Assembly (NCBI GenBank): GCA_029559475.1
Contig: JAKQBN010000055.1
Span: forward strand, 7,089-71,088
From: a bacterium
GTDB taxonomy: Bacteria > UBA4055
DNA length: 64,000 nt
Direction of reading: 5' to 3'
Part shown: positions 18,077 through 51,693 of the stretch, piece after piece
How the letters are laid out: every line of letters starts with the position of its first letter
How positions within the stretch are numbered: position 1 is the first letter of the stretch
Position numbers and translations under genes: made by a program
The notes under the pieces: model-generated
Told to the model about the DNA's origin: nothing
Seen by the model: only the letters and a program-made list of their open reading frames with translations
Database searches by the model: none

Positions 18077-18085
18077 ATAAATTAA

Positions 18086-19714
<1,629 letters not shown>

Positions 19715-19716
19715 GC

Positions 19717-20985: not shown

Positions 20986-20999
20986 AAAAGGAAAAGATC

Positions 21000-35539: not shown

Positions 35540-35565
35540 AGCTATATCTTTTCCAGATAAGGTTA

Positions 35566-35590
35566 GACTTTTTTGCGACGAATAAATTTA
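35566..35590 (+). repeat. junction repeat M1 (gacttttttgcgacgaataaattta)
   Basis: 22/25 identical to M2 at 37321-37345. It overlaps the RhuM stop codon. Confidence 0.85.
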
Positions 35591-36637
35591 TTTTAATTTC
35601 TTTACATCTATTTTTTTGATATCTGTTTCAAGCTCTTTCAGGCTATTTTCTCTTTCTGCAAGCCTCTGGTTCTCAATGAATTTCTCATATTCGGCTTCTG
35701 ACTTCTCAAGAGCTGCCTGATGACTTATTTTTCCTGCGTGTGTGAGTAATTCTCTCTTGTTCATTTTTAAAATATCGTCAAGCTTTTCTATCCAGTCTTT
35801 CATATACATCGGAATATGCTGATTCGCCATTGTCTCAGCGAACGCGAGATACTGCTCCACAAGAAGCCCGAGAAGGCTCATTTCGTTCTCATTCAGATAA
35901 TTTTTTGCTGTCGAAACTTCGCTTTTTGTAATTCGTGTGCCGGAATCTTTATCGTAAGACTGCATGCCCATCAAAGGCATTTTTGCATCAGCTCTTCGAT
36001 AAATCAGCTCAGCTGCGGTCTGCTTACTTATAGCCCATAATAGTTTATTCTGAACGATCTTGAAGAATTCGATAGTTTTTTCATCTTTGGGATTATAATC
36101 TATGCTTGTTGTATAAATATCTTTGATCTTCTGATAAAAGAACCGTTCTGAGATCCTTATCTCGCGAAGTCGTGCCTGAAGTTCGTTAAAATAATTCATC
36201 GAATTACCCTTTTTGAACCTCTCATCGTTCAGAGTGAAGCCTTTAACGATATATTCCTTAAGCCTCTGAGTAGCCCATTTTCTGAATTGGGTACCCTGGA
36301 GTGATTTTACACGATATCCGACAGAAATTATAGCATCGAGATTATAATAATTAACTTCCGTTTCTTGAGTTTTACCTTCAATTGCACCGTGCTGAGTGGT
36401 TTGTCGGAATTTCCGACATACCATATGTTCATCCAATTCGCACTCTTTAAAAATATTTCTAATATGTTCAGTTATTGTCGTTCTGCCTTTCCCGAAAAGC
36501 TGAGCTATCTGATTTTGATTCAGCCATACGGTTTCACTTTCCAGGATCACATCGATCTTTACTTTGCCGTCATCAGCTTCGTAAACAAGGAATTGGCTGC
36601 TCTTCGAATCATGTATTGTGATATCATTTTTTGCCAT
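35588..36637 (-). CDS. RhuM-family protein
   Basis: N-terminal FLVYEADDGKVKIDVILESETVWLNQNQIAQLFGKGRTTITEHIRNIF and the central region are typical of RhuM. Confidence 0.8.
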   Translation of the reverse strand: MAKNDITIHDSKSSQFLVYEADDGKVKIDVILESETVWLNQNQIAQLFGKGRTTITEHIRNIFKECELDEHMVCRKFRQTTQHGAIEGKTQETEVNYYNLDAIISVGYRVKSLQGTQFRKWATQRLKEYIVKGFTLNDERFKKGNSMNYFNELQARLREIRISERFFYQKIKDIYTTSIDYNPKDEKTIEFFKIVQNKLLWAISKQTAAELIYRRADAKMPLMGMQSYDKDSGTRITKSEVSTAKNYLNENEMSLLGLLVEQYLAFAETMANQHIPMYMKDWIEKLDDILKMNKRELLTHAGKISHQAALEKSEAEYEKFIENQRLAERENSLKELETDIKKIDVKKLK

Positions 36638-36695
36638 ATATTCTCCTCAGTAACTTCATAGGCAATTTAAGAAAAAATTCAAAGATATTCTATAT

Positions 36696-36733
36696 TTACC
36701 TGAATTATTTACATGAACCTTATTATTGACGAT
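36696..36733 (+). repeat. junction repeat N1 (ttacctgaattattta...ccttattattga)
   Basis: 32/38 identical to N2 at 38022-38059, including an exact 16-mer. Contains ACCTGAAT, also present in R1/R2. Confidence 0.85.
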
Positions 36734-36784
36734 TTGATTTAATCGGAAAAATTCGTATATTACGGATAAGAAAACGGAGTAAGA

Positions 36785-37033
36785 ATGCCTGTAATATCAA
36801 GATTCTATGGCATAATAATTAAGATGTACTTCAATGAGCACGGAATTCCTCATTTTCATGCTATTTATAATGAGTATAACGGAGTTTTCAGCATATCTGA
36901 TCTGATAATGATAGAAGGGGATTTGCCTTCAAAAGCACAGACACTTGTAAAGGAGTGGGCATTTAAATATAAAGATGAACTTGAAAAGATGTGGGCAACG
37001 AAAGACATAATTACTCTTCCGGGGTTGGAATAA
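36785..37033 (+). CDS. DUF4160-family protein
   Basis: MPVISRFYGIIIKMYFNEHGIPHFHA is the DUF4160 signature. Confidence 0.8.
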   Translation: MPVISRFYGIIIKMYFNEHGIPHFHAIYNEYNGVFSISDLIMIEGDLPSKAQTLVKEWAFKYKDELEKMWATKDIITLPGLE

Positions 37034-37320
37034 TGAATTTCCATAGAATTAAAAATATAGAGGTTTTGAATAATTATCAGCTCAAAGTTGAATTTATAAC
37101 CGGCGAAATAAAAATATACGATTGCAAACCACTGCTTGAGAAAGATGTTTTCAAAGCTCTGGAAAATGAGAATTTATTCAGGAAAGTAAAGGTTGATATT
37201 GGAGGCTACGGTATTATCTGGAACGATGAAATTGATATTTCTGAATCTGAATTATGGATAAACGGCAAAAATATTAACTCCCAAGTCGCTGAAGACAAAG
37301 CAGATTACAATTCAAAATAA
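37033..37320 (+). CDS. DUF2442-family protein (usual partner of DUF4160)
   Basis: The ATG overlaps the upstream stop (taATG). IKNIEVLNNYQLKVEFITGEIKIYD resembles DUF2442. Confidence 0.75.
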   Translation: MNFHRIKNIEVLNNYQLKVEFITGEIKIYDCKPLLEKDVFKALENENLFRKVKVDIGGYGIIWNDEIDISESELWINGKNINSQVAEDKADYNSK

Positions 37321-37345
37321 GACTTTTTTATAACGAATAAATTTA
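37321..37345 (+). repeat. junction repeat M2 (gacttttttataacgaataaattta)
   Basis: Starts immediately after the DUF2442 stop codon. 22/25 identical to M1. Confidence 0.85.
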
Positions 37346-37350
37346 CTCGA

Positions 37351-37899
37351 TTACGGCAGGCGGCCGAGCAGAAGGTTTAAACTCAGGCCCGCAAAGCTTT
37401 TCTCCGCATTGATATTCCCGAAAGCCGAAAGACTTAATCCGAAAGGACGCGCTCTGTTCAGATCAAGCTGAATTTCCAAAGGAAACCCGAATGTCTGAAA
37501 ATTGTTCATTTCGTATCTTGGTGAAGGATCGTTCTCAATAAAATATTTTTTACCTTCATATTCACCGGTTGTAACACTAATACCGCAAAGATATGATAAA
37601 TGAATATTCCCGAAAGATCGTCCGTATCCGTAAAGCAAACCATAATCCCAGGCTGAACCGCCATTATAAGGCTCACACGAAATAGTGCTACCTCCCGCAA
37701 TTCTCAACTTGATAACGTGCGTGTATTTTGAAAAATTGATTGAAACATTACCGCCTGTTAAGCCTGTATCCTCTGTAACAACTGCGCCTAATCCTGCGCT
37801 GAACCAGAGATGGTAGGGGAAAGGTCCGGTGCGTTCCTTGAAATTTATCGCGTTCAGGCATGAGGCGGTGAAGATCAGGAACAATAAAAAATACTTCAT
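37351..37899 (-). CDS. putative secreted or outer-membrane beta-rich protein
   Basis: N-terminal signal peptide (MKYFLLFLIFTASCLNA). Gly/aromatic-rich alternating pattern. No family recognised. Confidence 0.45.
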   Translation of the reverse strand: MKYFLLFLIFTASCLNAINFKERTGPFPYHLWFSAGLGAVVTEDTGLTGGNVSINFSKYTHVIKLRIAGGSTISCEPYNGGSAWDYGLLYGYGRSFGNIHLSYLCGISVTTGEYEGKKYFIENDPSPRYEMNNFQTFGFPLEIQLDLNRARPFGLSLSAFGNINAEKSFAGLSLNLLLGRLP

Positions 37900-38021
37900 T
37901 TTGACCTCAGTTTTGCAGTCGAATTACACTTTCTGATAATTTAGGAACACTTGAGACTTTTTGCAAGGTAATATTATCGTTTTGCTGTCCTCAGCAAAAT
38001 GATCGGAACTCACATTTCCGC

Positions 38022-38059
38022 TTACCTGAATTATTTATAAAAGCCTTATTATTGAAGAG
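38022..38059 (+). repeat. junction repeat N2
   Basis: 32/38 identical to N1. Its last 11 nt overlap the stop and last codons of the DUF4143 ATPase gene. Confidence 0.85.
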
Positions 38060-39254
38060 TTGGTTTAGACAGAAAATCAAACAGATTTATATGTTTTACG
38101 CCTGACTTTCTTTTAAAAACGACCGGATCCATTGAAATAACATACTTCGGATGGTTGTCCCTGACAGCCTCAAGGGCTGAAAACTCTCTTTCTGCTGTTT
38201 CCTGATTCTGCATCAGATATGATACCTGAATATAGATTTTTTCTTCTTCCTTTTCCGCTATAAAATCAATTTCCTTGTCTCCTATTCTGCCGAATGATAC
38301 TTTATAATCCCTTCTGTAAAGCTCAAGGCAGACTATGTTCTCCAGTATTCCGCCGATATCTTCATCTCTGAATCCCAGTACCGCGTGTCTTAAACCCAGG
38401 TCGCCGGCGTAATATTTTGCGTTCGTGTCAAGATATTCTTTTCCTTTTAAGTCGTATTGCCTGATCTTATGTGTGATCATTACATCGTTCAGGTTGTGTA
38501 TAAGGCTCAGAATAGTCGGAACACTGGTTTTTATGTGCTGGTTCTTCATATATTTTACGACGCTGCTTGCGTTGAACTGATTACCTATGTTATCGAAAAC
38601 AAAGCTCACTACGTCCTCCAGCAGGCTCACATTCCTTACATTGAATTTCTTAACTATATCTTTGAGAAGTATCGTCTGGTAGATAGCATCAAGGAACTGA
38701 AATGTTGCGGAAGCTTGAAAATCCAGATGAAAAAGTCCCGGCAGCCCTCCGAATCTGATATATTTTCTGAATACTTCCTCCTTCGGCTTACTTTCAAAAC
38801 CTCCGAGCTCGGTAAATTCATTGAAGCTGAAAGTATATATTTTGAACTCGACATATCTGCCTGAGATCAAAGTGGCAAGATCAGATGAGAGAAGATGCGA
38901 GTTCGATCCTGTGATATAAACATCCATGCCTTCAGCCAGAAAAGAGTTCACCGACCGTTCCCATTCCTTTATTTCCTGTACTTCATCAATAAGGATAACC
39001 GAACCGGACTTTCCTCCCGATTCGTCTATATAGCTATTCAATACTTTATAGTCAGTTATAAAATCGAACTGACGAAGCTCTTTATTTATTGAAATGACTT
39101 TCTTTTTCGGTTCGTTATGTTTTATCTCAGCTTCGATCTGCTTCAGCAGTTCACTTTTTCCCACCCTTCTCATACCGCTCAGGATCTTTATGACCGGTTT
39201 ACCCATAAAAGGCCTGATCTTTTTTAAATATGTTTCCCTTATTATAGTTTTCAT
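38049..39254 (-). CDS. AAA_14 + DUF4143 ATPase
   Basis: Walker A SGMRRVGKS, Walker B VILIDEVQ. C-terminal DUF4143-like region (GRIGDKEIDFI...). Confidence 0.8.
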   Translation of the reverse strand: MKTIIRETYLKKIRPFMGKPVIKILSGMRRVGKSELLKQIEAEIKHNEPKKKVISINKELRQFDFITDYKVLNSYIDESGGKSGSVILIDEVQEIKEWERSVNSFLAEGMDVYITGSNSHLLSSDLATLISGRYVEFKIYTFSFNEFTELGGFESKPKEEVFRKYIRFGGLPGLFHLDFQASATFQFLDAIYQTILLKDIVKKFNVRNVSLLEDVVSFVFDNIGNQFNASSVVKYMKNQHIKTSVPTILSLIHNLNDVMITHKIRQYDLKGKEYLDTNAKYYAGDLGLRHAVLGFRDEDIGGILENIVCLELYRRDYKVSFGRIGDKEIDFIAEKEEEKIYIQVSYLMQNQETAEREFSALEAVRDNHPKYVISMDPVVFKRKSGVKHINLFDFLSKPTLQ

Positions 39255-39409
39255 GTTTTAATTCCTATTTTAAATTCCTGACAAAATAAAGGAAATTTAA
39301 TATATACTTTAGATAAATGCAAGTTTTTAATTAATTTAAAATGTAAAATTATTTAAATATTAAAGCTGCGGCTTCATACTGCGTAGAAGTATCATTTATT
39401 TCTGACCAC

Positions 39410-39497
39410 TTTTGGCTGTTTTACAAGGATAATAAATAACATTAATGGACAAAAGGAAAGGTTATTTTAACAATATTTTGGCTATTTTACAAGGATA
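39410..39497 (+). repeat. two 22-nt direct repeats (ttttggctRttttacaaggata) 66 nt apart
   Basis: 39410-39431 and 39476-39497 differ at one position. They lie in the 336-nt AT-rich gap upstream of the DUF4143 ATPase gene. Confidence 0.85.
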
Positions 39498-39590
39498 CTT
39501 TATTTTGAACGATTAATTAACAGGCATATAGGGTAAGTTTCAAATCAACGATACAAGATAAAATTCCCAAATATTCTATAACTACCTTCA

Positions 39591-40094
39591 CTACCCCAGC
39601 CCCAGCACCAATTCCGGAATAAACTTATTCCTTGCGTCAGGATAGATCTTCTTTCTAAAGTTCTCTACCGCAATTTTCTCATATAAGTATAAAGACCCTC
39701 CGTCTCCGGCTATTGAATATTTAGGCATAATAATATCACCCAGCTTAATATCCGCTTTCAAAGCACCTGCCGCGCCTATGAATATCACTTTTTTGCATTT
39801 CGATCCGCCCAGAGTCAAACATGAATCGATCGTATTGGCCGCACCCGCCGCTACCTGAATATAGCCGAAACTTTTACCTTCAAATTCTACGGTATAACCG
39901 CAATAATACGGACCTTTTTTTTCTACTCTGACCACAGGATTGTATGCCGAAAAAATAATTTCAGGATTCCACGAAGGAGCCACGATTACCGCATCGTATT
40001 CAAAATCGGGATCTAACCCGTAGATATCTTTCAGCAGATTATCACAGGCGTTATACTTATGCAGGGATGATTTAAATTTTTCGTAGAGGGTCAT
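39591..40094 (-). CDS. nucleoside phosphorylase-family (PNP_UDP_1-like) protein, apparently C-terminally truncated
   Basis: VIFIGAAGALKADIKLGDIIMPKYSIAGDGGS resembles the phosphorylase core. At 167 aa it is short for the family. Confidence 0.45.
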   Translation of the reverse strand: MTLYEKFKSSLHKYNACDNLLKDIYGLDPDFEYDAVIVAPSWNPEIIFSAYNPVVRVEKKGPYYCGYTVEFEGKSFGYIQVAAGAANTIDSCLTLGGSKCKKVIFIGAAGALKADIKLGDIIMPKYSIAGDGGSLYLYEKIAVENFRKKIYPDARNKFIPELVLGLG

Positions 40095-40179
40095 CTATTC
40101 GAACTCCTTTGAGCATTTGAGCCTGAAGCATTCAGATACTTATAACTTTTTTTTGTCGTCAATCTAAGAGGGAATAGTA

Positions 40180-40731
40180 TCATTTTTCAAGAAATTGAAT
40201 AGCTTTATATATATTTGAGTATGATCCTCCTTTAAGTTCTAATTCTGAAGCGTATTGAACGGCTTTATACTGTCCTGAAATTAATTTTTCAACCCACTCT
40301 CTATTTTTTAGAAATTTCTCAGTTTTATCATAGCTCTCAATATATTTCAGTAACTCTTTTTTCAATTCGCCATAACTAGAGTATCGCTTATTGCGCTGAA
40401 CAAAATGGATAAGGAACCAGAATTCTATTGAAGGCAGGCTGTCGCAAATCAGCACGTTTTTATTGTCTTTGTATCTTTTTCTAAACTTTTCCAGTTTATC
40501 CTTCTCAACGTCATTTCTTTGTGATACATCAGCATCGAATACGCATATCGCTACAGCATCGGCTTCTAAAATTTCCTTTACTTTTTTCTCTATCTTCGAG
40601 ATGCAGGTATTACTGTCGCAAAATCTTGGACTCACACTATATTTATAATCTTTAAGAATTTTCAGGTGTTTAAAGTAATATTTTTCTGTTACACCTTCTC
40701 CGATTATATGTATTGCTTGCTTTAATTTCAT
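40180..40731 (-). CDS. RloB/AbiLii-like protein
   Basis: The N-terminal IHIIGEGVTEKYYFKHLK matches the RloB signature (cEGe.TE..Yf). It sits 7 nt downstream of the ATPase partner. Confidence 0.75.
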   Translation of the reverse strand: MKLKQAIHIIGEGVTEKYYFKHLKILKDYKYSVSPRFCDSNTCISKIEKKVKEILEADAVAICVFDADVSQRNDVEKDKLEKFRKRYKDNKNVLICDSLPSIEFWFLIHFVQRNKRYSSYGELKKELLKYIESYDKTEKFLKNREWVEKLISGQYKAVQYASELELKGGSYSNIYKAIQFLEK

Positions 40732-40738
40732 TATAATC

Positions 40739-42034
40739 TTAATCTATATTAGGCACTGCTCCGAATTTTCCGTATTTATATGCTTTCTGCAGAGATGAGA
40801 TTCTGTTAAGACCGTTGAAACCTGTAAGGGGATAAAGCTTTGTCGAGCCGTCTTCTCTTTTTTCCGTGAACCAGAAATTATCCTTTCTAAGAAGATCTGT
40901 TTCGTCGAATAAATTGTCATAGTGAGTCGCAACAAGCACCTGAGCTTGGTCTGAATTACGTAGAAAATGCTCAAGAACATATTCAATAAGCCTTGGATGC
41001 AGCTTTGATTCTATCTCATCTATCGTAATGAATGCGTTATCCTCAATCGATTTAATAATTGCTCCGAACAAACCGAATATTCTTTTTGTACCCTCTGATT
41101 GCCATTCTATAGGCAGTCCGTAAATTTCTTTTCTACCATCGCTGACGACAGTATGCTTGAATTCAGTTACAGGATATTTAAAACTCTTATCTTTTTTTAA
41201 ATCTTCAATAACAGATGCGCGAATACTTAAAAAATTACCTATTGTCTGAGCCTGTTTTATAAAATCATCATCAACACTCTGAACGAATTCTTTGACATTT
41301 ATATCAGAAATATTAAAATCAGCCTCTTTCAGGCACTCAAGCATTTTTAATTTATGGCTAGGGTTTGTTTTAATTAATTCCTCTGAAAAATGCTGTAAAG
41401 GATCGTTAGGCACGATTGAATTGAAAACATGATCAAATAGCCATTTTGTAACATCGCTCAAGCCGTTCAGATAAGCATTTATCTTTCTCAATGCCGCCAG
41501 GACAGACATATTTTTCAAACATTTTACATTTAGTTCATCTTGAGTGATCTTGCTGATATTGTTTTTTCCTTTAAAAACTATTTTGGAAACGTCCGACTTC
41601 TCGTCATAATTTCTTTCAAAAAGAGTAGCAGGCTGAGTACCCGGATACATATCAAGCTTTTCATAAAGGACAGCTTTCTGATCGACCTCTAAATAATAAA
41701 CATATTTGATCCCATCTTTATAAAAAACAAGCTTAAACACGCTCGGGTGGTTTCTGCTTGTTTTATCGAGAAGAAAAGGTATTGCATTGGTGCCGGAATA
41801 CTTATTGTCGGTTCCTATAAACCAGAAATTTATAAGGAACTGAAAAGCAGCTATAAGATTAGACTTTCCGGACGCATTGGAACCATATAAAATGCCCAAC
41901 TTTAACAGGCGGACCCCTTTTGCGGCCTCTACAACATGATGATCTTCAAAAGTCCTGTCTTTCGAAGCTTCGAAAGAATATGTAACTTCATCTCTGAACG
42001 AGAGAAAATTCTTGATTGTAAGTGAATGTATCAT
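40739..42034 (-). CDS. AAA_21/ABC-type ATPase, AbiLi-like partner of RloB
   Basis: Walker A YGSNASGKSN, Walker B/D-loop FITIDEIESKLHP. Confidence 0.8.
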   Translation of the reverse strand: MIHSLTIKNFLSFRDEVTYSFEASKDRTFEDHHVVEAAKGVRLLKLGILYGSNASGKSNLIAAFQFLINFWFIGTDNKYSGTNAIPFLLDKTSRNHPSVFKLVFYKDGIKYVYYLEVDQKAVLYEKLDMYPGTQPATLFERNYDEKSDVSKIVFKGKNNISKITQDELNVKCLKNMSVLAALRKINAYLNGLSDVTKWLFDHVFNSIVPNDPLQHFSEELIKTNPSHKLKMLECLKEADFNISDINVKEFVQSVDDDFIKQAQTIGNFLSIRASVIEDLKKDKSFKYPVTEFKHTVVSDGRKEIYGLPIEWQSEGTKRIFGLFGAIIKSIEDNAFITIDEIESKLHPRLIEYVLEHFLRNSDQAQVLVATHYDNLFDETDLLRKDNFWFTEKREDGSTKLYPLTGFNGLNRISSLQKAYKYGKFGAVPNID

Positions 42035-42371
42035 TTTTCCGGTTCCGGCAGATTAAACATTGTCAGAAATGTAAAACAAAACACTTAATTTGTCAAGTGA
42101 GTTTATGAAAATAGCAGAAAAATTGCAAAAACATAAAATAAGGTTGTTGTATAAATATAATTATCCTATTTGTTGTGTTAACTTTAAAAAATTACTAACT
42201 TATCTATACGCCAATAATATTTTTTCTAATTTCATAATATAATTTTAATTTAAAAATTACTTTGGATTATTATTATTAATGGGATAGATTTAGTTTATAT
42301 TTGTATCGTAAAGTGAAAAGTCAGGGAACTACGGGAGAGTCCAAATGAGTGAGCCTGTAAACGAAAGAAAC

Positions 42372-42439
42372 ATTGTCGTATCGACAAAACGACAATTAAC
42401 AATAATGCAAGGTTAGATGCATGGAAAAAGATTCCATGC
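42372..42439 (+). other. two hairpins in the leader of the DUF5131 gene
   Basis: attgtcg (42372-78) / cgacaat (42390-96) with an 11-nt loop. gcatgga (42419-25) / tccatgc (42433-39) with a 7-nt loop. The second ends 36 nt before ATG 42475. Confidence 0.4.
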
Positions 42440-42474
42440 GAGTAAATCTGTAATTAGAGAAAAGTAAAACGCAA

Positions 42475-43209
42475 ATGGCAACGACTAAGATAGAATGGAC
42501 AGAATCAACATGGAATCCGATCACCGGATGCACAAAATTATCCGCAGGCTGCAAATTCTGTTATGCCGAAGTAATGGCGAGAAGGCTCAAAGCTATGGGA
42601 CAGCCGAAATACAAAGACGGTTTCAAGCTTACGCTCCATCCCGACACGCTGACAGAACCTTACACTTGGAAGAAGCCTAAAATGATCTTCGTGAACTCAA
42701 TGAGCGATCTCTTCCATAAAGATGTCCCCGTTGATTACATACAAAAAATATTCAAAGTCATCAAAGACAATCCTCAGCATGTATTTCAGATACTAACAAA
42801 AAGAGCCGACATATTAAGATACTACGACAGTGAAGGCTGGCTTGACTGGCCGCATAACCTTTGGATGGGCGTGACAGTGGAAGATTCAACCGTAACATCA
42901 AGAATTGACTGCCTGAGAAAAACAAAAGCAAGAGTAAAATTCCTCTCCTGCGAACCGCTCCTAAGCTCATTACCCGAACTCAACCTACAAGCAATAGACT
43001 GGGTCATCGTAGGCGGAGAAAGCGGAAGAACACCGCGCCCGATCAAAGAAGAATGGATAATCGAAATAAAAGAACAATGTGAAAAAGCCGGAACAGCATT
43101 CTACTTTAAACAGTGGGGCGGCACCAACAAAAAAGAAGCAGGCAGGCTGTTACAAGGCAAAAGGTACGATCAAATGCCTGAAATGGTCGAGCAAGAAACT
43201 CTAATATAA
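42475..43209 (+). CDS. DUF5131 (phage Gp37/Gp68) family protein
   Basis: MATTKIEWTESTWNPITGCTKLSAGCKFCYA, with three Cys, is the family N-terminus. Also GGESG...FFKQWG. Confidence 0.85.
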   Translation: MATTKIEWTESTWNPITGCTKLSAGCKFCYAEVMARRLKAMGQPKYKDGFKLTLHPDTLTEPYTWKKPKMIFVNSMSDLFHKDVPVDYIQKIFKVIKDNPQHVFQILTKRADILRYYDSEGWLDWPHNLWMGVTVEDSTVTSRIDCLRKTKARVKFLSCEPLLSSLPELNLQAIDWVIVGGESGRTPRPIKEEWIIEIKEQCEKAGTAFYFKQWGGTNKKEAGRLLQGKRYDQMPEMVEQETLI

Positions 43210-43234
43210 AACTTTTTGTTACGAATAAATCTTA
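43210..43234 (+). repeat. junction repeat M3 (aactttttgttacgaataaatctta)
   Basis: Starts right after the DUF5131 stop. Shares acttttt + acgaataaat with M1/M2 at the same spacing (one T fewer). Confidence 0.6.
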
Positions 43235-43279
43235 TGCTGTCCGGTCAGTAGACTATCTTTTCTTTACTTCAAATGCGTT

Positions 43280-44647
43280 CTAATTCTTAAATATTTTATC
43301 GTATTTTGTGTAATCGAAATTTGGTCCTAGAATTTTACTTGATTTATCTTTTAATTGTTTTGTTATACGATATATTTCATTGTTGTTATAGAATTCCCCA
43401 TTCTCATTGATTAACTTAAATAATAACTCAAAATCACTATTGTCAAAATCGTTTAAAATTTTGCTAATGATATTATCATACGTGCTTAAAGCAGAATAAT
43501 AAGTAAACGATTTTCCACAATAATTTATCAAGAATGTCTTAACTTGAATTTGAGATAAAACAATTTTTGATCTATTATAAAGCTGCATCAGAGCATCTTC
43601 CTGTATACAGTCGTATAGATTTACATTTACATAGCCATTAGGCTCAATAAGTATTTTATCATGTATTTCTTCGATTTTAGATATATGCGCCTCAATGCTA
43701 TTACTTAGAAAATATGCTACTGTAAATAAAGAAATATTTTTGTTAGCTTCGATTTGTATATAATTTTTTACTGTCGAATCTAGGACATTATATATTTCTG
43801 GATATTTGCTAATATATGATGTAAGAGCAGTAATTCGAGAACTACCTTGATTTATAGCCTTATCGTTTATGCTACAAGAAAAATTACTGGGTTTAATATT
43901 GTTGAATTTTTGTGAATTTTGCTTGATTAAATTTATAAAATCTTCAAGATGTTTTTCTGTAAGTGTCTTAATACAAAATACATTCAGATAACGGTTTTTT
44001 TCGCATTCAGAATTATCAAGAATAAATGTAAGTTTCCATAAAGATTCGAATAGTTTTTCTCTCACTGGTTTGTTAATTCTCGAGTAGTATCGTACATTTA
44101 GGAAATCTTCTAATCCCTCAGTACGGACTCTTTCAAAATAATCTGTAGTATTTTTTAAAAATTCATCAATTATCTTTTTACATAATAACGCTTCTTTCTC
44201 AAAGACAATTTCAAACATATTTCTCATGTGGTTTCTAACATTTTCCGGTGTCGGATTTATTAATCTATTTCCATTGTCAATTAATGGATGAGCAGCTATG
44301 TTTCGTTCTTTAACAAGTTCATTTATTCTATGAAATTCTACATCATTAATTAATTCAGTACTATCTTTTATTTCTTGTAACAATGTTTTTTCCCAGTCTG
44401 AAGATGTAGGTTTTAGCTTTTGTTCGTTCTTGATTTTATCAATTATTCTTTTTGCGTTATTATCAGAATATATTTCATCGAGCAAAATCAATTTGTTCAT
44501 TAAATCATAGACTACTACTGAATACAAAACGACTATTGCAGAACGATAATTACCGTTATGATAACTTGATAAGACTTCTTTTAAGTATTCTTTAGTTTGT
44601 ATGTTTGGAATTTTCTTTATCTCATCTTCAATAATAAATTCATCCAT
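43280..44647 (-). CDS. HEPN-like (Rx4H) N-terminal domain protein with unknown C-terminal region
   Basis: Helical N-terminus (NYRSAIVVLYSVVVYDLMNKL) followed by VKERNIAAHP (R-x4-H). aaggtg RBS. Last gene of the six-gene operon. Confidence 0.5.
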   Translation of the reverse strand: MDEFIIEDEIKKIPNIQTKEYLKEVLSSYHNGNYRSAIVVLYSVVVYDLMNKLILLDEIYSDNNAKRIIDKIKNEQKLKPTSSDWEKTLLQEIKDSTELINDVEFHRINELVKERNIAAHPLIDNGNRLINPTPENVRNHMRNMFEIVFEKEALLCKKIIDEFLKNTTDYFERVRTEGLEDFLNVRYYSRINKPVREKLFESLWKLTFILDNSECEKNRYLNVFCIKTLTEKHLEDFINLIKQNSQKFNNIKPSNFSCSINDKAINQGSSRITALTSYISKYPEIYNVLDSTVKNYIQIEANKNISLFTVAYFLSNSIEAHISKIEEIHDKILIEPNGYVNVNLYDCIQEDALMQLYNRSKIVLSQIQVKTFLINYCGKSFTYYSALSTYDNIISKILNDFDNSDFELLFKLINENGEFYNNNEIYRITKQLKDKSSKILGPNFDYTKYDKIFKN

Positions 44648-44679
44648 TCTTCACCTTCTTTTTTTTATTACAATATTAT

Positions 44680-45639
44680 TTAAGAAAATTTATTTAAAAG
44701 AGTTAAAATCTTTTTAATTTCATATTTTATTTCAGGGCTATCATTGATAGAATCAGCGAATTCAGAATCAGTAATGAGCTCTCGAAATGCTCTCATCTTT
44801 TTATAGATACTATCTATTTTTCCAGTATCTTTAACCTGTTCGAAACCATTATAAATATCTTTTTGCCCCGATGCTATCTCAGCGAGAACTTTTTTCGCTT
44901 TTTTATCAGGACACTTAGCTATTTCACCTACCTTTCTGATGTCAGAAGCCTGTTGTATTTCTTTGTTTTTTATTTGCAAAACGAGAGTATTAACTAATTC
45001 AGGATGAGATTTGGTTGCATTATTTATAGATTTGTTCTTGAGCAACTCGTCATAATAACTCCAATTTGTCGGTTCCAAGTCTTTAGTCTCAATCATAAAA
45101 GAGAAGACTTTTAAATATCTTTGAGCATCTCCTTTTTTTATACCTAACTCTTTAGCCATTATGTCAACAGATAGCTTTGATTCTTTACTTCGTCTGTACA
45201 AATATCCAGCCTGCTCGTATGGACTCCAGTCTTTTCTTCCTATAATGTGATATTGCCCAAGAAGAGTAAAAATAGATGATTCATCAATGTCTGAAGGTAA
45301 AATTAAACATTTAACTTTACCCCATGAAATAGGATCTTTTTGACATAAAATTCGATATGCCGCTAATCGGCTATTTCCTTCAAGTACAACTAAATCACCA
45401 TCACGCACAATTAAAGGATCAATTAGACCGCCATTACTTTCAATGGAAAGCCTAAGTTGCTTCACATGCTCCATCGAAATCATCAATTTTTCAATGTTAC
45501 TTTGATCGGGCTTGATGTCATCAGAAACTCTTAGGGCACTATAGACTCGAGGATTATCGACATAGAACTTAAGAGAAGCTTGGAGGATTTCCTCTTCTTT
45601 TACTTGAAACTCTTTTTTGCCAATTGTCAATGTATTCAT
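44680..45639 (-). CDS. ParB/Srx-fold N-terminal domain protein (paralogue 2)
   Basis: DNPR, NGGLIDPLIVRDGDLVVLEGNSRLAAY, GRKDWSPYEQAGYLY. Its start overlaps the SNF2 stop (ATGA). Confidence 0.7.
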   Translation of the reverse strand: MNTLTIGKKEFQVKEEEILQASLKFYVDNPRVYSALRVSDDIKPDQSNIEKLMISMEHVKQLRLSIESNGGLIDPLIVRDGDLVVLEGNSRLAAYRILCQKDPISWGKVKCLILPSDIDESSIFTLLGQYHIIGRKDWSPYEQAGYLYRRSKESKLSVDIMAKELGIKKGDAQRYLKVFSFMIETKDLEPTNWSYYDELLKNKSINNATKSHPELVNTLVLQIKNKEIQQASDIRKVGEIAKCPDKKAKKVLAEIASGQKDIYNGFEQVKDTGKIDSIYKKMRAFRELITDSEFADSINDSPEIKYEIKKILTLLNKFS

Positions 45640-47120
45640 GTTTCACTCTCACTATTTTCATTTAAAATATCTTTAACAAGCTCACCAAAACTATAATCCG
45701 CAACATTTTGGTATTTCTTCAAAACATAATCTCCTTGAGCTAAAAAAGCTGCATTCTGTTTGGCTTTGAGTAAAAGGTCAATCCAAATGTCAATACTATC
45801 TTTAACCATCAAATTATAGATGTTGCAAGTTTTTGTTTGTGAAATACGATGAATTCTATCTTGTGCCTGCAAATAATCATCAAGATTAAAACCGCGATCG
45901 TAAAAAATGACATTGTTCGCAACTGTCAGTGTAAGTCCTTCTTTCGCGGATTGAGGCGTAGCAAATAATACTTTAGCATCTCCATTTTTAAACTCACGTA
46001 CAGAATGTATTCTTTCTTCAATTTTCATTTTTCCGGTAATTTTTACTGCATTAAGGTACTTATACTTTTTACAGAAATGATCAACATTGTCAATAAAAAT
46101 TGACCAAACTATAATCTTTTCATCTCTATTGATTATTTCTTTGATTAATTCATCTAGTTTAGCTTCCTTACCTGAAAAACAGCAGTATAAGTCATCTAAT
46201 AATCTAGGATTTGATGTAATCTGTACCAGTCTTAACAATCTTTTTATTGAATCAGAAGATTCATCAAGTATAGCCACATCATCCCGTTGCAATAATAGTT
46301 GCATCTCTGTTCTAACTTTATCATACATCATGTATTGGGTCTTTTCAAAATCGACAAACACATCATAATACACTTTGTTTGGAAGTGTTATAATTCCGCT
46401 GCTCTTAGTCTCACGTACAGTAAAATCTTTAATTCTCGTAAAAATATTAGATACAGATGATTCAAACACATCTCTTTTTACTTTGTTATTGGACAAATCA
46501 TTAGTAAGATTTGTTGTCGATTTGAACTCAGAGAAATTAGTTCCCAGGCTCTTCCCGTTATCGAGGAAATAAATCTGAGCCCAAATATCATATGGTCTAT
46601 TAGCCACAGGTGTGCCTGTCATTATAACCCGAATCTTAAATAAACTAGAAATCTCGAAAAAATCTTGTGTTAGTCTAGAATCGGGATTTTTTAGTTTCGT
46701 AGATTCATCGATAATAATGGCAACATTCCTAGTCTTTAGAAAAAGCTTGAATCTCACTAACTCACCAGATATAGTTTCAAAATTCGTAATTATTACTCTA
46801 GTAGCGCTATTAAATACATAGTAATTTTCTGTCCGTTTACTTGTTAGGATTCTAGGTGTAATATTAGTATGTATTTCAAACTCGCCACGCCAATTTTCAA
46901 CTAATTGCTTTTTTGTGACAATAAGTACGGTATCAATTTCCAAAAATTCTAACCAATATAAAAGAAGATCAATTGCTATTTTCGTTTTACCTAGTCCTTG
47001 CTCATGAAAGATTGCTGCATATGGCAAATTTTTCATTGCTTCAAAAGCTTCGTATTGATATGGGAATGCATTTAGCTTCGCTGTTAGATTTTGTCCGGGT
47101 AAATTGATTATTTTTCTCAT
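45636..47120 (-). CDS. compact SNF2-family helicase/translocase
   Basis: Motif I HEQGLGKT, motif II IIDESTKLKN, motif VI QAQDRIHRISQTK. 494 aa with no accessory domains. Confidence 0.9.
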   Translation of the reverse strand: MRKIINLPGQNLTAKLNAFPYQYEAFEAMKNLPYAAIFHEQGLGKTKIAIDLLLYWLEFLEIDTVLIVTKKQLVENWRGEFEIHTNITPRILTSKRTENYYVFNSATRVIITNFETISGELVRFKLFLKTRNVAIIIDESTKLKNPDSRLTQDFFEISSLFKIRVIMTGTPVANRPYDIWAQIYFLDNGKSLGTNFSEFKSTTNLTNDLSNNKVKRDVFESSVSNIFTRIKDFTVRETKSSGIITLPNKVYYDVFVDFEKTQYMMYDKVRTEMQLLLQRDDVAILDESSDSIKRLLRLVQITSNPRLLDDLYCCFSGKEAKLDELIKEIINRDEKIIVWSIFIDNVDHFCKKYKYLNAVKITGKMKIEERIHSVREFKNGDAKVLFATPQSAKEGLTLTVANNVIFYDRGFNLDDYLQAQDRIHRISQTKTCNIYNLMVKDSIDIWIDLLLKAKQNAAFLAQGDYVLKKYQNVADYSFGELVKDILNENSESET

Positions 47121-47530
47121 ACGATACTTACGCTCCCGATGTCGTTTAAAATATGAAGCTTGACCGATGAATTTTGTTCCGCTTTGATTCTTTTAGCCAT
47201 GTTTTTTATTCTTGCGTATGAATAAATTGATGTACAAATAATAATATGGCTTTCTTCATCAAATAATGAGGCTTCTCTAATATATGATCTATACTGTTCA
47301 ATACTGTGTTTACGGTCAATATCATTCTCAGTTTTAGCTTCTCCAATTATCAAACGACGAGTATCTTTGTAATATAGGTCAGGTATAAAATTACCAATCG
47401 TTCTTTCTGGTCTTCTGTTACTATCGGGTAAATCTACTAGCACAAGTGCCCTTGCGTCGAAAGGTAATAATAAAAATACATAATTAGCAATTTGGCGAAC
47501 ATAATTTATATGTTCAATAGATTCAGCCAT
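47117..47530 (-). CDS. small PD-(D/E)xK-like nuclease-fold protein
   Basis: FIPDLYYKDTRRLIIGEAKT gives D...ExK with 14-residue spacing. 137 aa. Its stop overlaps the SNF2 start (ATGA). Confidence 0.5.
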   Translation of the reverse strand: MAESIEHINYVRQIANYVFLLLPFDARALVLVDLPDSNRRPERTIGNFIPDLYYKDTRRLIIGEAKTENDIDRKHSIEQYRSYIREASLFDEESHIIICTSIYSYARIKNMAKRIKAEQNSSVKLHILNDIGSVSIV

Positions 47531-47534
47531 AAAA

Positions 47535-48545
47535 TTAATCTTCAGGTTGTATGTCTTTCAATATTTCTTGGAGACCTTCAAAAATATCAAGGAGCATTGT
47601 TTTCTTTTTTTCGTATTCGGGATCACTACCTAAATTTTTTACTTCTTTGTATTCTAGCCTGTTAAGCGCTTCTAAGAATTTTGTACCAAGAACATCATAT
47701 GTAAACTTATCTAGCTCATTATGTGTATTCTCAGTTATAGCTATCTTTTTTACAGCTTCTGAGATATTTCTTCTTAAAAAAACTTTTAACGCTTCTGGTT
47801 CCTTCAGTACTGCGGGTAATTGACGCACATTTTGCGCTGTATCGATGTTATCATCGACAACCCATTTTGCAAAATCATTTTTTGTAAAACCTTTATTGGT
47901 TAGTGCATAAGTTATTGTTGACCGTTGAAGCTCAACAAATTTTGAAAATTCTCTTATATCAAAATCATCACCTTTTTCTTTTACTGCTTTGGCATAATAT
48001 ACTTGCATGTCGCGGTATGCACTTATAAGCTTATTTATTTCTGAAGTATTACCACCGCACATGGATATGATATTTGCCATTGGCAAGCGTTCAATTTCAC
48101 TCAGTTGATGTAGATATTTAGCTTTTGAATACGGATCCCAATCACGAGGACCAACTAAATGTGACTGTAATCTAATGGAATGTTTTTCTGAGTCAGTTAA
48201 GCATTCGTAAATAATGGAACTGATTTTACTCCAAGGGCCTGTTGGATTTAACGCTAGAAATTCTTTATAAATTTGAAGTCTCGTATTCCCTTCGATTACG
48301 ATTAAACGTCCATCCGGTTCTTTACTGACTATAATTGGATGAATAATTCCTCCACTGACCTTAATAGACTCCTTTAGAGTATTATAAGATGTAGATGAAT
48401 CACCGTTACCTGGGTTTGTTAATGCAAGTGCAATAGCTTCACTTGTTATTTCACCCGGATAAATCTCAAGATATTGCTTGATTCTTGGATTGTCGAGGTC
48501 AAGATGAATTTCGCTAATGTCCAATTCAATGTATTTAGGTTCCAT
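47535..48545 (-). CDS. ParB/Srx-fold N-terminal domain protein (paralogue 1)
   Basis: LDLDNPR, SGGIIHPIIVSKEPDGRLIVIEGNTRLQIY, GPRDWDPYSKAKYLH. agaggg RBS. Confidence 0.7.
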   Translation of the reverse strand: MEPKYIELDISEIHLDLDNPRIKQYLEIYPGEITSEAIALALTNPGNGDSSTSYNTLKESIKVSGGIIHPIIVSKEPDGRLIVIEGNTRLQIYKEFLALNPTGPWSKISSIIYECLTDSEKHSIRLQSHLVGPRDWDPYSKAKYLHQLSEIERLPMANIISMCGGNTSEINKLISAYRDMQVYYAKAVKEKGDDFDIREFSKFVELQRSTITYALTNKGFTKNDFAKWVVDDNIDTAQNVRQLPAVLKEPEALKVFLRRNISEAVKKIAITENTHNELDKFTYDVLGTKFLEALNRLEYKEVKNLGSDPEYEKKKTMLLDIFEGLQEILKDIQPED

Positions 48546-48556
48546 ATTTTACCCTC

Positions 48557-49810
48557 TTATTTAGATTTATACTGATTAATTTCTTCGAATCTTAAATCAT
48601 AATACTTCTTTGCGATTTCAGGAAACTCCATTTCAAAATCAATCATTGCTTTATAACAAGAGCAATATCCTTTTATGATGTTTGTATGGGTCAGGTGGTA
48701 TTCCTCATTTGCTTTACAGTACTGTCTAAAGCTTTTCTTTTTTAAAAAGTTTGGTTGATTACACCATCTTGCCAACTGTATATACATTGATTTATATTTA
48801 GATTCTTTATAATCCTCATATCTCATTATATAAGGCAAACATCCATGTTCCATTATTATTTTAATACGTTCAAAAGTATTCTCAATATCTCGTTCATCCT
48901 GGCTATCGTATCCGGTAAGGACATATAATTTTGTGGATTTTTTGTAATATTTTTTCCAAATCTTCAAGCTGTTGGAAATTTTTTCAGCATCTTCAATATG
49001 GTCAAATGCAAATATAAAATCACCTTTGTATTTAACTTTTGCAAGCCGTTCAGCTTTATCAGCTGTCATTAGTCGTATATCTAGACCCTGTCTAAATTGG
49101 AAAGGCTTCCCAGTAGCTATTAATGCATCAAGAATGGTGTAGAAGTCAGGTGAAGCCATAAAATTGTCATCCCATAAATATATGCCTCGTCTTTTTGGGT
49201 CTAAAAATTCCGAGATTGGAGAGTGTTTAATAACACGGTCATATTTCCTGTTAACACAATAACTACATTTTCTAAAACAACCTCTTGTCGTGAATCCGAT
49301 TGAGTAATTCAAGTAATCTTCATATCTAATAACATTCTTAGTAAAATTATCTGTTTGACTAGAAATAAAGTCTGTATAGAGTTCATAATCAGGCATGTGA
49401 TGTTCTATCTTATCCGGTAGATCTGGACTGTCCATCCCATAGAAACCTGTACCTCCGATAATTATCTCTTTATTATCAATTCTCTTTTGAATAACAGCTG
49501 GAATTTTAGTAAAATTAAAAACTTTAGACATTATTAAAAAATCATAAATATCTTCTTTCAATTTATCTGCAATTTCAGAGTAGTCACATATTAATTTAAC
49601 GCTATGTCTGAACTCTTTGCAATATCCCGATATTTTAAGTAAAGCAAGATTTGGATGCTTTGTGCCTTGGTCAAGAAGGTCGGCATCAATTATTCCAATT
49701 TTAAATTGTTTGTCGTTAGCCTCAATTAATTCACAAAAAATGAATCCTAATTTATTTTCGAGGAGTTTGTAGTAATTATTTTTTTGAAGGTTTTCTTTTT
49801 TACTTAACAT
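48557..49810 (-). CDS. radical SAM protein with N-terminal Rossmann/B12-binding-like extension
   Basis: GFTTRGCFRKCSYCVN gives CxxxCxxC. About 170 aa precede the cluster (IGIIDADLL...LALLKISGY). ATG 49810 is preferred over TTG 49819. Confidence 0.8.
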   Translation of the reverse strand: MLSKKENLQKNNYYKLLENKLGFIFCELIEANDKQFKIGIIDADLLDQGTKHPNLALLKISGYCKEFRHSVKLICDYSEIADKLKEDIYDFLIMSKVFNFTKIPAVIQKRIDNKEIIIGGTGFYGMDSPDLPDKIEHHMPDYELYTDFISSQTDNFTKNVIRYEDYLNYSIGFTTRGCFRKCSYCVNRKYDRVIKHSPISEFLDPKRRGIYLWDDNFMASPDFYTILDALIATGKPFQFRQGLDIRLMTADKAERLAKVKYKGDFIFAFDHIEDAEKISNSLKIWKKYYKKSTKLYVLTGYDSQDERDIENTFERIKIIMEHGCLPYIMRYEDYKESKYKSMYIQLARWCNQPNFLKKKSFRQYCKANEEYHLTHTNIIKGYCSCYKAMIDFEMEFPEIAKKYYDLRFEEINQYKSK

Positions 49811-50030
49811 AATTTCCAAGTTTTAAAGTTACAGAATGCTTAACTGAGAGGAAAGTGAGGACTATTTTTGATAGCAATAGACCACTTTTTGTTTAATAGA
49901 ATGAGATATTTTAATGAACTGCTTCGTTTTATAGCTGCGTTATCGTTTCATTTATGACATTAGGAAAATAAAACCTTATGAATGAATAATCAAGTAAATT
50001 GCTTTAGTATTTTGTCTGATATAATTCGAA

Positions 50031-50087
50031 TTAATTAACTTTCTTATACCTGAATACTGCGTAGTTGGTTACGACTGTGCTGTAATG
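50031..50087 (+). repeat. direct repeat R1: displaced copy of the ABC-2 permease 3' end
   Basis: Aligns to 51835-51892 with 4 mismatches and 1 indel over 58 nt. Its minus strand encodes STVVTNYAVFRYKKVN*, against STVVTAYAVFRYKKVN* in the real gene. Confidence 0.9.
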
Positions 50088-50109
50088 TAAAATATATTAT
50101 ACAAATGTA

Positions 50110-50138
50110 TTGACAAAAATAATTGACATGTGTATATT
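50110..50138 (+). promoter_or_regulatory. near-consensus sigma70 promoter of the XRE-Panacea gene
   Basis: TTGACA (50110-15), 17-nt spacer, TATATT (50133-38). A second TTGACA lies at 50123-28. aggagg RBS before ATG 50165. Confidence 0.55.
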
Positions 50139-50164
50139 GCAGCTACATATTATACAGGAGGTTT

Positions 50165-51022
50165 ATGATGGCGATGAATGAATACATTAGAAAAATGAGA
50201 GAAATGAAAAATATTTCTCAAGAGATCGCCGCAAAAGAACTGGGATATACAAGACAGACATATATACAGATCGAGAGCGGCAGCAGAGATATTACTTTAA
50301 GCGAGTTGAAGAAACTTTCGGCTATGTTTGATATTCCTTTTAATAAATTTGTGACCGAAACAGAACCTGACACATTTAACATAGATTTTGAGGAAAAGGA
50401 AGCGGATATTGAGTCAAAGGAGATAAGGATAAGTGTTCCGCAGAACAGAGTCGGTAAATTCAAGGAGGTTCTGCTTTATATTCTGTCTAAGGCGGGAGCA
50501 AAGCCGAACATTGGTGAGACAGCTATTTATAAACTTTTGTATTTTATTGATTTTGATTATTACGAGAAGTATGAAGAACAGTTGATAGGGGCGAATTATA
50601 TCAAAAATCATTATGGACCGACTCCAGTGATATTTAAAAAACTGACTGAAGAAATGATCGCTGATAATGAGCTTGAAGTGATCGAAAAAACTTATTATGA
50701 ATTCAATCAAAAGAAATATTTACCGAGAAGATGTGCCGATTTAAGTAAAATATCCGCCCGTGAGATTAAGCATATTGACGAGGAACTGGAAAGGCTAAGT
50801 GATAAAAATGCAGCTGAGTTGAGCGAGCTGTCGCATAAAGATGTCCCGTGGATCACAGCGAAGGAAGGTGAAACGATTGAATATGAAGGCGTTTTTTACC
50901 GCACAGGAGATACTTCGGTGAGATATAAAAAATTGAAAGATCGTATGTCCATGGCTGCGGAAGCTTTGTATAACGATTATTGTTCTGATAAAGAGCTCAC
51001 TGCATTTACCGATCTTATTTGA
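50165..51022 (+). CDS. XRE-family HTH fused to Panacea (DUF4065/SocA-like) antitoxin-type domain
   Basis: The HTH is ISQEIAAKELGYTRQTYIQIESG. The Panacea-like core is GETAIYKLLYFIDFDYYEKYEEQLIGANYIKNHYGPTP. The ORF-track start at 50123 is actually a -35 box. Confidence 0.8.
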   Translation: MMAMNEYIRKMREMKNISQEIAAKELGYTRQTYIQIESGSRDITLSELKKLSAMFDIPFNKFVTETEPDTFNIDFEEKEADIESKEIRISVPQNRVGKFKEVLLYILSKAGAKPNIGETAIYKLLYFIDFDYYEKYEEQLIGANYIKNHYGPTPVIFKKLTEEMIADNELEVIEKTYYEFNQKKYLPRRCADLSKISAREIKHIDEELERLSDKNAAELSELSHKDVPWITAKEGETIEYEGVFYRTGDTSVRYKKLKDRMSMAAEALYNDYCSDKELTAFTDLI

Positions 51023-51080
51023 ATAAGTAGGTTTTGAGAACTCAACTATGCGGAGTGTAGTTAGCTTGAGGGATGGTATT

Positions 51081-51497
51081 TTAATTTTTAAAAGGATTTA
51101 TGATTTTAAGAGTGTTTTCAATCAGTTGATTATGCTGCATATCTTCGCTGTATAAAATTGAACATCCCGACTCCAATGCGGAAGCAATTACTAAGCTGTC
51201 CCAATATGAGAATCCATACCGGTCTTTGATTTCCATAGCCTTAATTACATCAAAAGTGCTTATATCGACTACATTAAAATTAGCTATAGTCTCGATAATG
51301 ATATCATTTACTTTGCCTTTTGTATTGATAGCTTTTTTTACTAGTGCTGAATAAAGCTCATTTAAAATTTGCGTACTTATGATAATATTTTCAAAATTTT
51401 CAGTAATTAACTTATCGGCTATATTTTTTTTTGAGATATCTTCGCTGTAATAAAGGTAAACCCATACATTGGTATCAATAAAAACCTTATCTGTCAT
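51081..51497 (-). CDS. PIN-domain toxin (VapC-like)
   Basis: MTDKVFIDTNVWVYLY N-terminus, DSLVIASAL, YSEDM acidic residues. Confidence 0.8.
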   Translation of the reverse strand: MTDKVFIDTNVWVYLYYSEDISKKNIADKLITENFENIIISTQILNELYSALVKKAINTKGKVNDIIIETIANFNVVDISTFDVIKAMEIKDRYGFSYWDSLVIASALESGCSILYSEDMQHNQLIENTLKIINPFKN

Positions 51498-51693
51498 ATA
51501 ATTCTTCCCGGTTGAACTTATAGCCCTTTTCAAATTTCATCTGATATCTTTTAACAAAATCAAGAAAACTTTTCTTTTTGTCGTGTTTTTCATCAATAAT
51601 AATGACTTTAATTTTCTGCCCGTCAACCAACCCGAATTCTTCATCTAAAGTCAGGTTATTGTTATTGTATGTGGCGGTAACTACTTTAAACAT
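51487..51693 (-). CDS. putative antitoxin (DUF104-like)
   Basis: 68 aa. Overlaps the PIN start by 11 nt. ATYNNNNLTLDEEFGLVDGQKIKVIIID resembles the DUF104 pattern. Confidence 0.5.
   Translation of the reverse strand: MFKVVTATYNNNNLTLDEEFGLVDGQKIKVIIIDEKHDKKKSFLDFVKRYQMKFEKGYKFNREELYDR

Follow-up and report, generated by a model that had tools for sequence, protein, structure and literature searches.

Two ancient ParB-type paralogues flank the predicted nuclease and SNF2 genes of a four-gene core, invariant in order, in a putative defence cassette

Introduction

ParB-type proteins have recently been recognized as DNA clamps gated by cytidine triphosphate (CTP), and in ParB, Noc, and KorB the clamp is one homodimer. 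What, then, might a fixed pair of ParB-like paralogues do when its genes lie together with those of a predicted nuclease and an SNF2 ATPase? The question is raised by a 64,000-nucleotide (nt) stretch of bacterial DNA (GTDB lineage Bacteria; UBA4055; GenBank assembly GCA_029559475.1, contig JAKQBN010000055.1, forward-strand positions 7,089 to 71,088). We refer to this whole stretch as the window and give all coordinates as positions within it. An earlier note, made from the letters of the window alone, had placed two ParB-fold proteins of 336 and 319 amino acids (aa) around nuclease and SNF2 open reading frames (ORFs). Both sets of coordinates and both lengths were correct, and the two ORFs do lie between them. 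Here we report that these proteins, which we call ParB1 and ParB2, are ancient paralogues of the ParB/Noc/KorB type within an invariant four-gene core, and we consider what that core may do together with its exchangeable partner genes.

Results

ParB1 and ParB2 arose by an old duplication

The genes form a tight minus-strand operon in the order radical S-adenosylmethionine (SAM) protein, ParB1, 137-aa ORF, SNF2, ParB2. Its first five genes are separated by gaps or overlaps of 4 to 11 nt, and those from ParB1 to ParB2 by gaps or overlaps of 4 nt. ParB1 (47535 to 48545, 336 aa) has a ParB/Srx N-domain, a helix-turn-helix (HTH), and a helical C-terminal region; ParB2 (44680 to 45639, 319 aa) is its paralogue. 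Four shared sequence blocks were found in both proteins where the earlier note had put them. The first, DNPR, occupies residues 18 to 21 of ParB1 and 28 to 31 of ParB2. The second reads SGGIIHPIIV in ParB1 and NGGLIDPLIV in ParB2, the third VIEGNTRLQIY and VLEGNSRLAAY, and the fourth GPRDWDPY..A.YL and GRKDWSPY..A.YL. Three motifs within the blocks are used below as boxes I to III. In ParB1 these are DNPR (48483 to 48494), EGNTR (48279 to 48293), and GPRDWDPY (48129 to 48152), and in ParB2 they are DNPR (45547 to 45558), EGNSR (45367 to 45381), and GRKDWSPY (45217 to 45240).

Pairwise BLASTP aligned ParB1 and ParB2 with an E value of 1e-18 and 29% identity across 167 aa. When the profiles of the two orthologue families were compared with hhalign, the probability was 99.9% (E = 4.6e-31, 247 columns). 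As judged from these sequence comparisons, the two are clearly homologous, with a similarity far above chance. The divergence that had been described outside the blocks is real, but the C-terminal halves can still be recognized as related. In the profile alignment, ParB1 residues 9 to 274 are paired with ParB2 residues 29 to 284, which takes in the HTH and the greater part of the helical region, and only the last 45 to 60 or so residues are unalignable.

In a neighbour-joining tree of 158 sequences, 81 ParB1 and 77 ParB2 proteins formed reciprocally monophyletic clades. This argues for a single ancient duplication, one that came before the cassette spread. Identity between ParB1 and ParB2 of the same locus is 16 to 25%, far below the mean identity among orthologues (47% for ParB1 and 44% for ParB2), so the old duplication proposed from the window alone is borne out. 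In each protein, boxes II and III are the most highly conserved parts. Because both also keep their invariant motifs, neither copy is degenerate.

Both proteins have a ParB-type fold and an altered nucleotide site

AlphaFold2 models of ParB1 and ParB2 were built from orthologue alignments and reached predicted local distance difference test (pLDDT) scores of 80.7 and 89.2, respectively, with a predicted template modelling (pTM) score of 0.78 for ParB2. The top 23 Foldseek matches of the ParB1 model were all ParB, Noc, or KorB. Both models matched structures of these three proteins best, with 235 to 290 columns aligned to constructs that comprise the N-domain and the HTH. In the predicted structures, both proteins have the N-terminal alpha/beta ParB/Srx fold followed by an HTH DNA-binding domain, as in ParB-type clamps. 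Therefore, the earlier placement of both in the ParB/Srx fold holds. When the family profiles were compared with PDB sequences, the two ParB families gave sub-significant matches only, all of them to Noc, ParB, or SbnI. Precomputed matches to the Pfam family ParB_N (PF02195) exist for some orthologues.

Three motifs are invariant in both families: NPR in box I, E-G-N-[T/S]-R in box II, and [RK]DW..P in box III. The E, G, N, and R of box II were invariant in alignments of 20, 34, and 28 sequences, and they include the GxxR ([DE]GxxR) nucleotide-phosphate motif. A hidden Markov model (HMM) alignment to Noc put the GERR of Noc opposite GNTR in ParB1 and GNSR in ParB2. The CTP box to which the earlier note had drawn attention is therefore partly kept. 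Its Gly and last Arg are present, but Asn replaces the catalytic Glu and Thr or Ser replaces the first Arg. Likewise, box I has NPR, with Asn where the QPR of ParB has a catalytic Gln. Because these catalytic residues are replaced, CTP hydrolysis by the ParB mechanism is doubtful, and the sequences do not support it. The invariant Glu before the box II Gly gives a [DE]GxxR motif that resembles those of SbnI (DGVHR), Srx, and DUF262. DUF262 proteins carry DGxQR (PMC12065111). Nucleotide binding by ParB1 and ParB2 is plausible from these motifs.

The core also encodes a predicted nuclease and an SNF2 ATPase

The 137-aa protein (47117 to 47530) is a predicted PD-(D/E)xK nuclease, with a PD...GEAK motif at 47333 to 47383. 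Across 32 orthologues, D51, E64, K66, H7, and Q79 are invariant and E3 is nearly so, and the spacing of the conserved residues is the classic PD-(D/E)xK pattern. Neither the window protein nor its family profile matched a Pfam family or a PDB sequence, so the name nuclease denotes a prediction from motifs. An exhaustive search returned 295 clusters of this small protein, nearly all of them stand-alone and about 135 aa long. The only apparent fusion to the N terminus of SNF2 among the 150 best representatives was a truncated metagenomic protein of 250 aa (P0421). A 432-aa protein that matches the nuclease (P0476) was considered as a ParB-nuclease fusion and rejected as probably a chimeric ORF.

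The next gene (45636 to 47120) encodes a minimal SNF2-family ATPase of 494 aa. It carries GLGKT (motif I, 46983 to 46997), DEST (46698 to 46709), and QAQDRIHR (motif VI, 45846 to 45869), and it matched the Pfam families SNF2-rel_dom (4e-24) and Helicase_C (2e-19). Across 77 orthologues, motifs I, II, III, V, and VI show conservation of 95% or more. Its best matches among PADLOC models were ZorD (E = 8.7e-43) and DpdE.

The gene order is invariant across more than 10 phyla

A search with ParB1 gave 1,628 matches, mostly 330 to 340 aa long and 52 to 58% identical. We also scanned one genome per GTDB species, which identified 176 relatives, and fetched the best 80 loci; the counts of partner modules given below cover 84 fetched loci. 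The order ParB1, small protein, SNF2, ParB2 was unchanged in every locus not cut by a contig end. Therefore, the fixed pair flanking the nuclease and SNF2 genes, described from a single locus in the earlier note, is a feature of every complete locus examined. The carriers, about 80 species loci in more than 10 phyla, include Bacteroidota, Bacillota, Planctomycetota, Chloroflexota, Alphaproteobacteria, Desulfobacterota, Spirochaetota, and Saccharibacteria, among others. Some are cultured: Clostridium paridis (YIM B02565), Sphaerochaeta pleomorpha (Grapes), Blautia aquisgranensis, and Rhizobium leguminosarum WSM1325 (plasmid pR132505).

Most copies are chromosomal and have defence genes as neighbours. 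In other genomes these neighbours include Hachiman, ToxN, PLD-helicase, OLD nucleases, restriction-modification (R-M) genes, and PADLOC PDC candidates. The identical core order was found on rhizobial and Roseomonas plasmids (7 of 72,556 plasmids have the cassette) and in 3 of 2.9 million viral contigs. No record in a phage collection matched the cassette. On our preferred account, the cassette spread by horizontal transfer and resides in defence islands.

The core is joined by exchangeable partner modules

The first gene of the operon in the window (48557 to 49819) was missed by the earlier note, which had the core genes right, and with it the two-module, R-M-like architecture. It encodes a divergent radical-SAM-like protein of 417 to 420 aa with a CxxxCxxC motif at 49256 to 49279, and it is the putative modification, or partner, module of this locus. 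As found with an iterated profile, a radical-SAM gene adjoins the core in about 68 of the 84 loci. The family is uncharacterized and large, with at least 5,115 matches. Its CxxxCxxC is invariant (C181, C185, and C188 in 22 sequences), and its members score 15.5 to 23.7 bits with Pfam PF04055, below the cutoff of 29.5. The family profile did not match any PDB sequence.

Three types of partner module were distinguished. In type A, a radical-SAM protein of about 400 aa is encoded upstream of ParB1, and a 222-aa protein, F6, is encoded directly after ParB2. In other genomes, the two are joined in a single protein of about 630 aa, encoded after ParB2. By hhalign (99.96%, E = 3.9e-39), F6 is a homologue of the extra C-terminal part that the long radical-SAM forms carry. 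Among the 84 loci, radical SAM and F6 are split in 35 and fused in 5; another 29 have radical SAM only, none has F6 only, and 15 have neither. A link between F6 and Pfam DUF7226, the C-terminal domain of a type II restriction endonuclease, was suggested by one weak match and rejected because only 1 of 25 members matched. F6 itself is variable in form. One protein (locus L022, 8074 to 9771) has an F6 domain with a fused C-terminal S24 (LexA-like) peptidase, other loci encode F6 proteins of 380 to 1018 aa with further C-terminal domains, and some (L023, L034, and L036) have two F6 genes in tandem.

Type B, found in at least 21 loci, is a separate operon in either orientation. It encodes a longer radical-SAM protein followed by a GHKL (HATPase_c_3) ATPase; Proteobacteria and some other groups have a DndB-like DGQHR protein in addition. 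This last variant occurs in proteobacterial and planctomycete loci, among them R. leguminosarum pR132505 (L090 and L091), Roseomonas mucosa p2-AD3 (L092), L081, and L078. Its DndB-like protein is a third member of the ParB/Srx superfamily. Type C comprises nine loci of uncultured Bacilli that have no radical SAM; in these, the core is part of Dam-type R-M cassettes. The order is HTH-DpnM-DpnA-[core]-R.DpnII in L040 (7815 to 18035), M-[core]-R in L055, and M-R-[core] in L060 (7773 to 14877). In loci where the core separates the methylase gene from the endonuclease gene, neighbouring genes overlap at their start and stop codons. Both ParB genes are kept in type C loci, which indicates that the pair belongs with the SNF2/nuclease core and not with radical SAM.

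Taken together, the cassette looks like a restriction core with a modification module. We infer a parallel with Dnd, Dpd, Ssp, and BREX-like systems, whose layout is likewise an invariant effector core with swappable DNA-marking partners.

The cassette differs from known systems

None of the PADLOC v2 models describes the cassette, and two of its genes, those for radical SAM and the nuclease, have no PADLOC match. The only PADLOC matches of the ParB genes are to PDC-M38A and PD-Lambda-5_A; they cover the N-terminal part and are weak (E values of 1e-6 to 3e-10). The PD-lambda-5 and PDC-M38 proteins are fusions of 450 to 715 aa, and the other cassette genes match none of the models for their partners. 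PD-lambda-5 was described as a compact R-M plus abortive infection system by Vassallo et al. (PMC9519451). No NCBIfam family scored above cutoff for the cassette proteins. Public annotation already names some members "ParB N-terminal domain-containing protein." Full-text literature searches turned up no account of the cassette, which is so far undescribed.

Several known systems resemble it in part. Like ParB, Noc, and KorB, the two proteins have an N-domain, an HTH, a helical C-terminal region, the Gly and last Arg of box II, and recognizable NPR and [RK]DW.P motifs. Unlike them, they have GN[TS]R for GERR and NPR for QPR, and they have no ParA. In modification-based defence, a protein with an NTP-binding domain of the ParB superfamily and a DNA-binding domain serves in sensing or regulation alongside nucleases, helicases, and a modification module (PMC12065111, PMC12839542, PMC10853773). 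DndB in Dnd, DpdB in Dpd, and NsnA/DUF262 in Menshen, GmrSD, and SspE are of this kind, and the cassette shares with them the combination of a ParB-superfamily and a DNA-binding domain beside a nuclease and a helicase. Dpd is alike in a further respect, because it combines a ParB-like protein with an SNF2-type helicase (DpdE) and radical-SAM chemistry. However, the ParB pair has none of the DGQHR, DGxQR, QRxxxW, or FxxxN motifs, and the cassette has no tRNA-guanine transglycosylase (TGT; DpdA), no DndACDE, and no DUF1524/HNH. Also unlike these systems, it has two paralogous ParB genes that bracket its effector genes, and only some variants, in their partner module, have a true DndB-like protein.

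The DUF262/GmrSD/SspE/NsnA-type ParB motifs are QRxxxW, DGxQR, and FxxxN (PMC12065111). In the cassette pair, only the position of motif II (EGN[TS]R) is alike, and there is no DUF262 Pfam match. The 7-deazaguanine system Dpd comprises DpdA (TGT), DpdB, and DpdC together with DpdD to DpdK. We found no TGT or DpdC that would place the cassette in Dpd, and its SNF2 matches DpdE through the helicase core, far below the NCBIfam cutoff. ZorD of type I Zorya and other SNF2-nuclease effectors likewise pair an SNF2 ATPase with a PD-(D/E)xK (Mrr-like) nuclease, as does the one nuclease-SNF2 fusion in the cassette family. Unlike in ZorD, the cassette nuclease is normally a separate 137-aa protein; in addition, ZorABC is absent, and scores are far below the NCBIfam equivalog cutoffs.

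The window cassette lies in a defence island

Nucleotide similarity to the nearest relatives (L005, L007, and L026; 76 to 79% identity) runs from 49705 to 44707 and ends just inside the 3' end of ParB2. In the slot where these relatives have the 222-aa F6 gene, the window has a PD-T7-3 homologue (43280 to 44647, minus strand, 455 aa). It is a HEPN tRNase with RNIAAH at 44288 to 44305, it is full length (PADLOC 5e-104), and it starts 32 nt past the ParB2 stop codon with its own ribosome binding site. PD-T7-3 is now named DARNA and is a stand-alone HEPN tRNase activated by single-stranded DNA (bioRxiv 10.64898/2026.02.22.705581). DARNA was rejected as a regular cassette member, since no homologue is present in the other loci, and it lies outside the conserved cassette. 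A functional link, by way of single-stranded DNA that the SNF2 protein and nuclease might generate, is conceivable.

The cassette and DARNA are in a low-GC (31 to 37%) defence island of about 16 kb (35500 to 51600). Its other genes encode RhuM, AAA_14/DUF4143, PNP_UDP_1, RloB with AAA_15, DUF5131, HTH-SocA/Panacea, and PIN proteins; on its flanks are ABC-transporter genes and a Por_Secre_tail gene. The DUF5131 gene (42475 to 43209, plus strand) is an orphan of the phage Gp37/Gp68, radical-SAM-related kind, with no obvious adjoining partner gene; it matches PADLOC PDC-M41B and PDC-M30B at about 3e-124. Scans for promoters and terminators were uninformative, with 44 promoter-like sites (38.5 expected) and no terminator on the minus strand. 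A repeat search of 43200 to 50200 found no convincing parS-like or operator-like palindromes or arrays. A loading site for the ParB proteins could be elsewhere or on foreign DNA.

The window matches contig DAOMLF010000006.1 of a metagenome-assembled genome (MAG). The closest relatives of the cassette (76 to 84% identity) are in MAGs of Paludibacter, Bacteroidetes, Chitinophagales, and Kapaibacterium. The NCBI label of MAG GCA_035422465.1, "Clostridiales bacterium," may be wrong, because its contig encodes a Por_Secre_tail (type IX secretion system) protein and the cassette has these relatives. Elsewhere in the window, positions 16000 to 22000 have a sustained AT skew of about +0.2 over several large plus-strand ORFs.

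Discussion

What, then, might the pair do? ParB/Srx domains recur as sensors in defence systems, including Dnd, Dpd, Ssp, GmrSD, and Menshen. Our preferred reading, for which we judge the case to be evenly balanced, is that ParB1 and ParB2 are a nucleotide-gated DNA sensor or loader that directs the SNF2 motor and the nuclease in an R-M-like defence cassette, in which the usual marking module is the radical-SAM protein. The partner module would mark host DNA. ParB1 and ParB2, probably joined in a heteromer in which nucleotide binding brings the N-domains together, would bind or load onto unmarked DNA. They would then license translocation by SNF2 and cutting by the nuclease. The analysis establishes the paralogy and predicted fold of the ParB proteins, the motifs kept intact in all five proteins, the invariant gene order, and the swapping of partner modules; the defence role, the modification role of the radical-SAM protein, the heteromer, and gating by nucleotide are inferred. 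A more specific version is that the cassette represents a new and widespread class of R-M-like immunity in which an asymmetric, nucleotide-gated ParB1/ParB2 clamp senses DNA that lacks a radical-SAM or Dam-type mark and licenses the SNF2 protein and nuclease to destroy it. This we put forward tentatively, and we think it rather doubtful.

Several observations weigh against the preferred reading. The Pfam model ParB_N (PF02195) matches ParB1 with an E value of 0.016 and 15.7 bits (cutoff, 26.3), and it does not match ParB2. In box II, the catalytic Glu and first Arg of the ParB GERR are replaced, which weakens the analogy with CTP clamps, and box I has Asn for the catalytic Gln. The radical-SAM assignment rests on CxxxCxxC and weak Pfam matches. 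The window cassette itself is of type A without F6; tblastn and an HMM search of all six frames found nothing resembling F6 in the window, so radical SAM is its lone partner. In a few loci (L073 and L080), the core has no recognizable partner. All loci with the core embedded in R-M genes belong to a single group of uncultured Bacilli and may reflect only one or two evolutionary events. Finally, a PADLOC census of 125 neighbouring proteins found many R-M and candidate-system families, a family list that carries no enrichment statistic.

ParB folds also serve chemistry. Members of the ParB/Srx superfamily include NTPases/nickases (Osa and RK2 ParB), kinases (Srx and the free serine kinase SbnI), and DpdB, an ATPase that helps in modified-base insertion. 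The cassette proteins could likewise be enzymes or cofactors in DNA modification or nicking chemistry, and not clamps or sensors. This is possible, but we are inclined to doubt it, because both proteins carry a ParB-type HTH and align with the N-domain plus HTH constructs of ParB, Noc, and KorB. Moreover, both genes stay with the SNF2 and nuclease genes in loci that have no radical SAM, so the pair is not specific to radical-SAM chemistry. Even if both proteins are ParB-like in action, they need not act together. Each might homodimerize and have its own job; for example, one might repress the operon as KorB does while the other recruits SNF2 and the nuclease. Homodimers are the form taken by ParB, Noc, and KorB, the repressor KorB is among the structural matches, and the conservation of the HTH region, which is higher in ParB1 (0.53) than in ParB2 (0.43), hints at different partners. 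We nevertheless consider this division of labour unlikely, because both genes are present in every locus and have kept identical nucleotide-site motifs throughout the history of the system, and because the repeat search of 43200 to 50200 found no convincing parS-like or operator-like palindromes or arrays.

The classical role of the ParB family, in partition, suggests a different function for the whole cassette, as a module for the maintenance, partition, or silencing of mobile elements and not for immunity. In favour of this, the cassette is on some large plasmids and in low-GC islands. However, it has no ParA partner, an intact nuclease and an SNF2 motor are always linked to it, and it is mostly chromosomal with defence neighbours. 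Its rarity on viral contigs and plasmids and its absence from phage records point the same way, and a maintenance role seems very improbable to us.

If the more specific reading, with an asymmetric clamp, is true, this would be the first ParB-type clamp heterodimer used in immunity, and the radical-SAM protein would possibly make a novel DNA modification. Two paralogues that always surround a motor and a nuclease would form, quite naturally, an asymmetric counterpart of the ParB clamp inside an immune system, and the radical-SAM family that is coupled to it might write a new DNA mark. The cultured carriers make the cassette directly testable.

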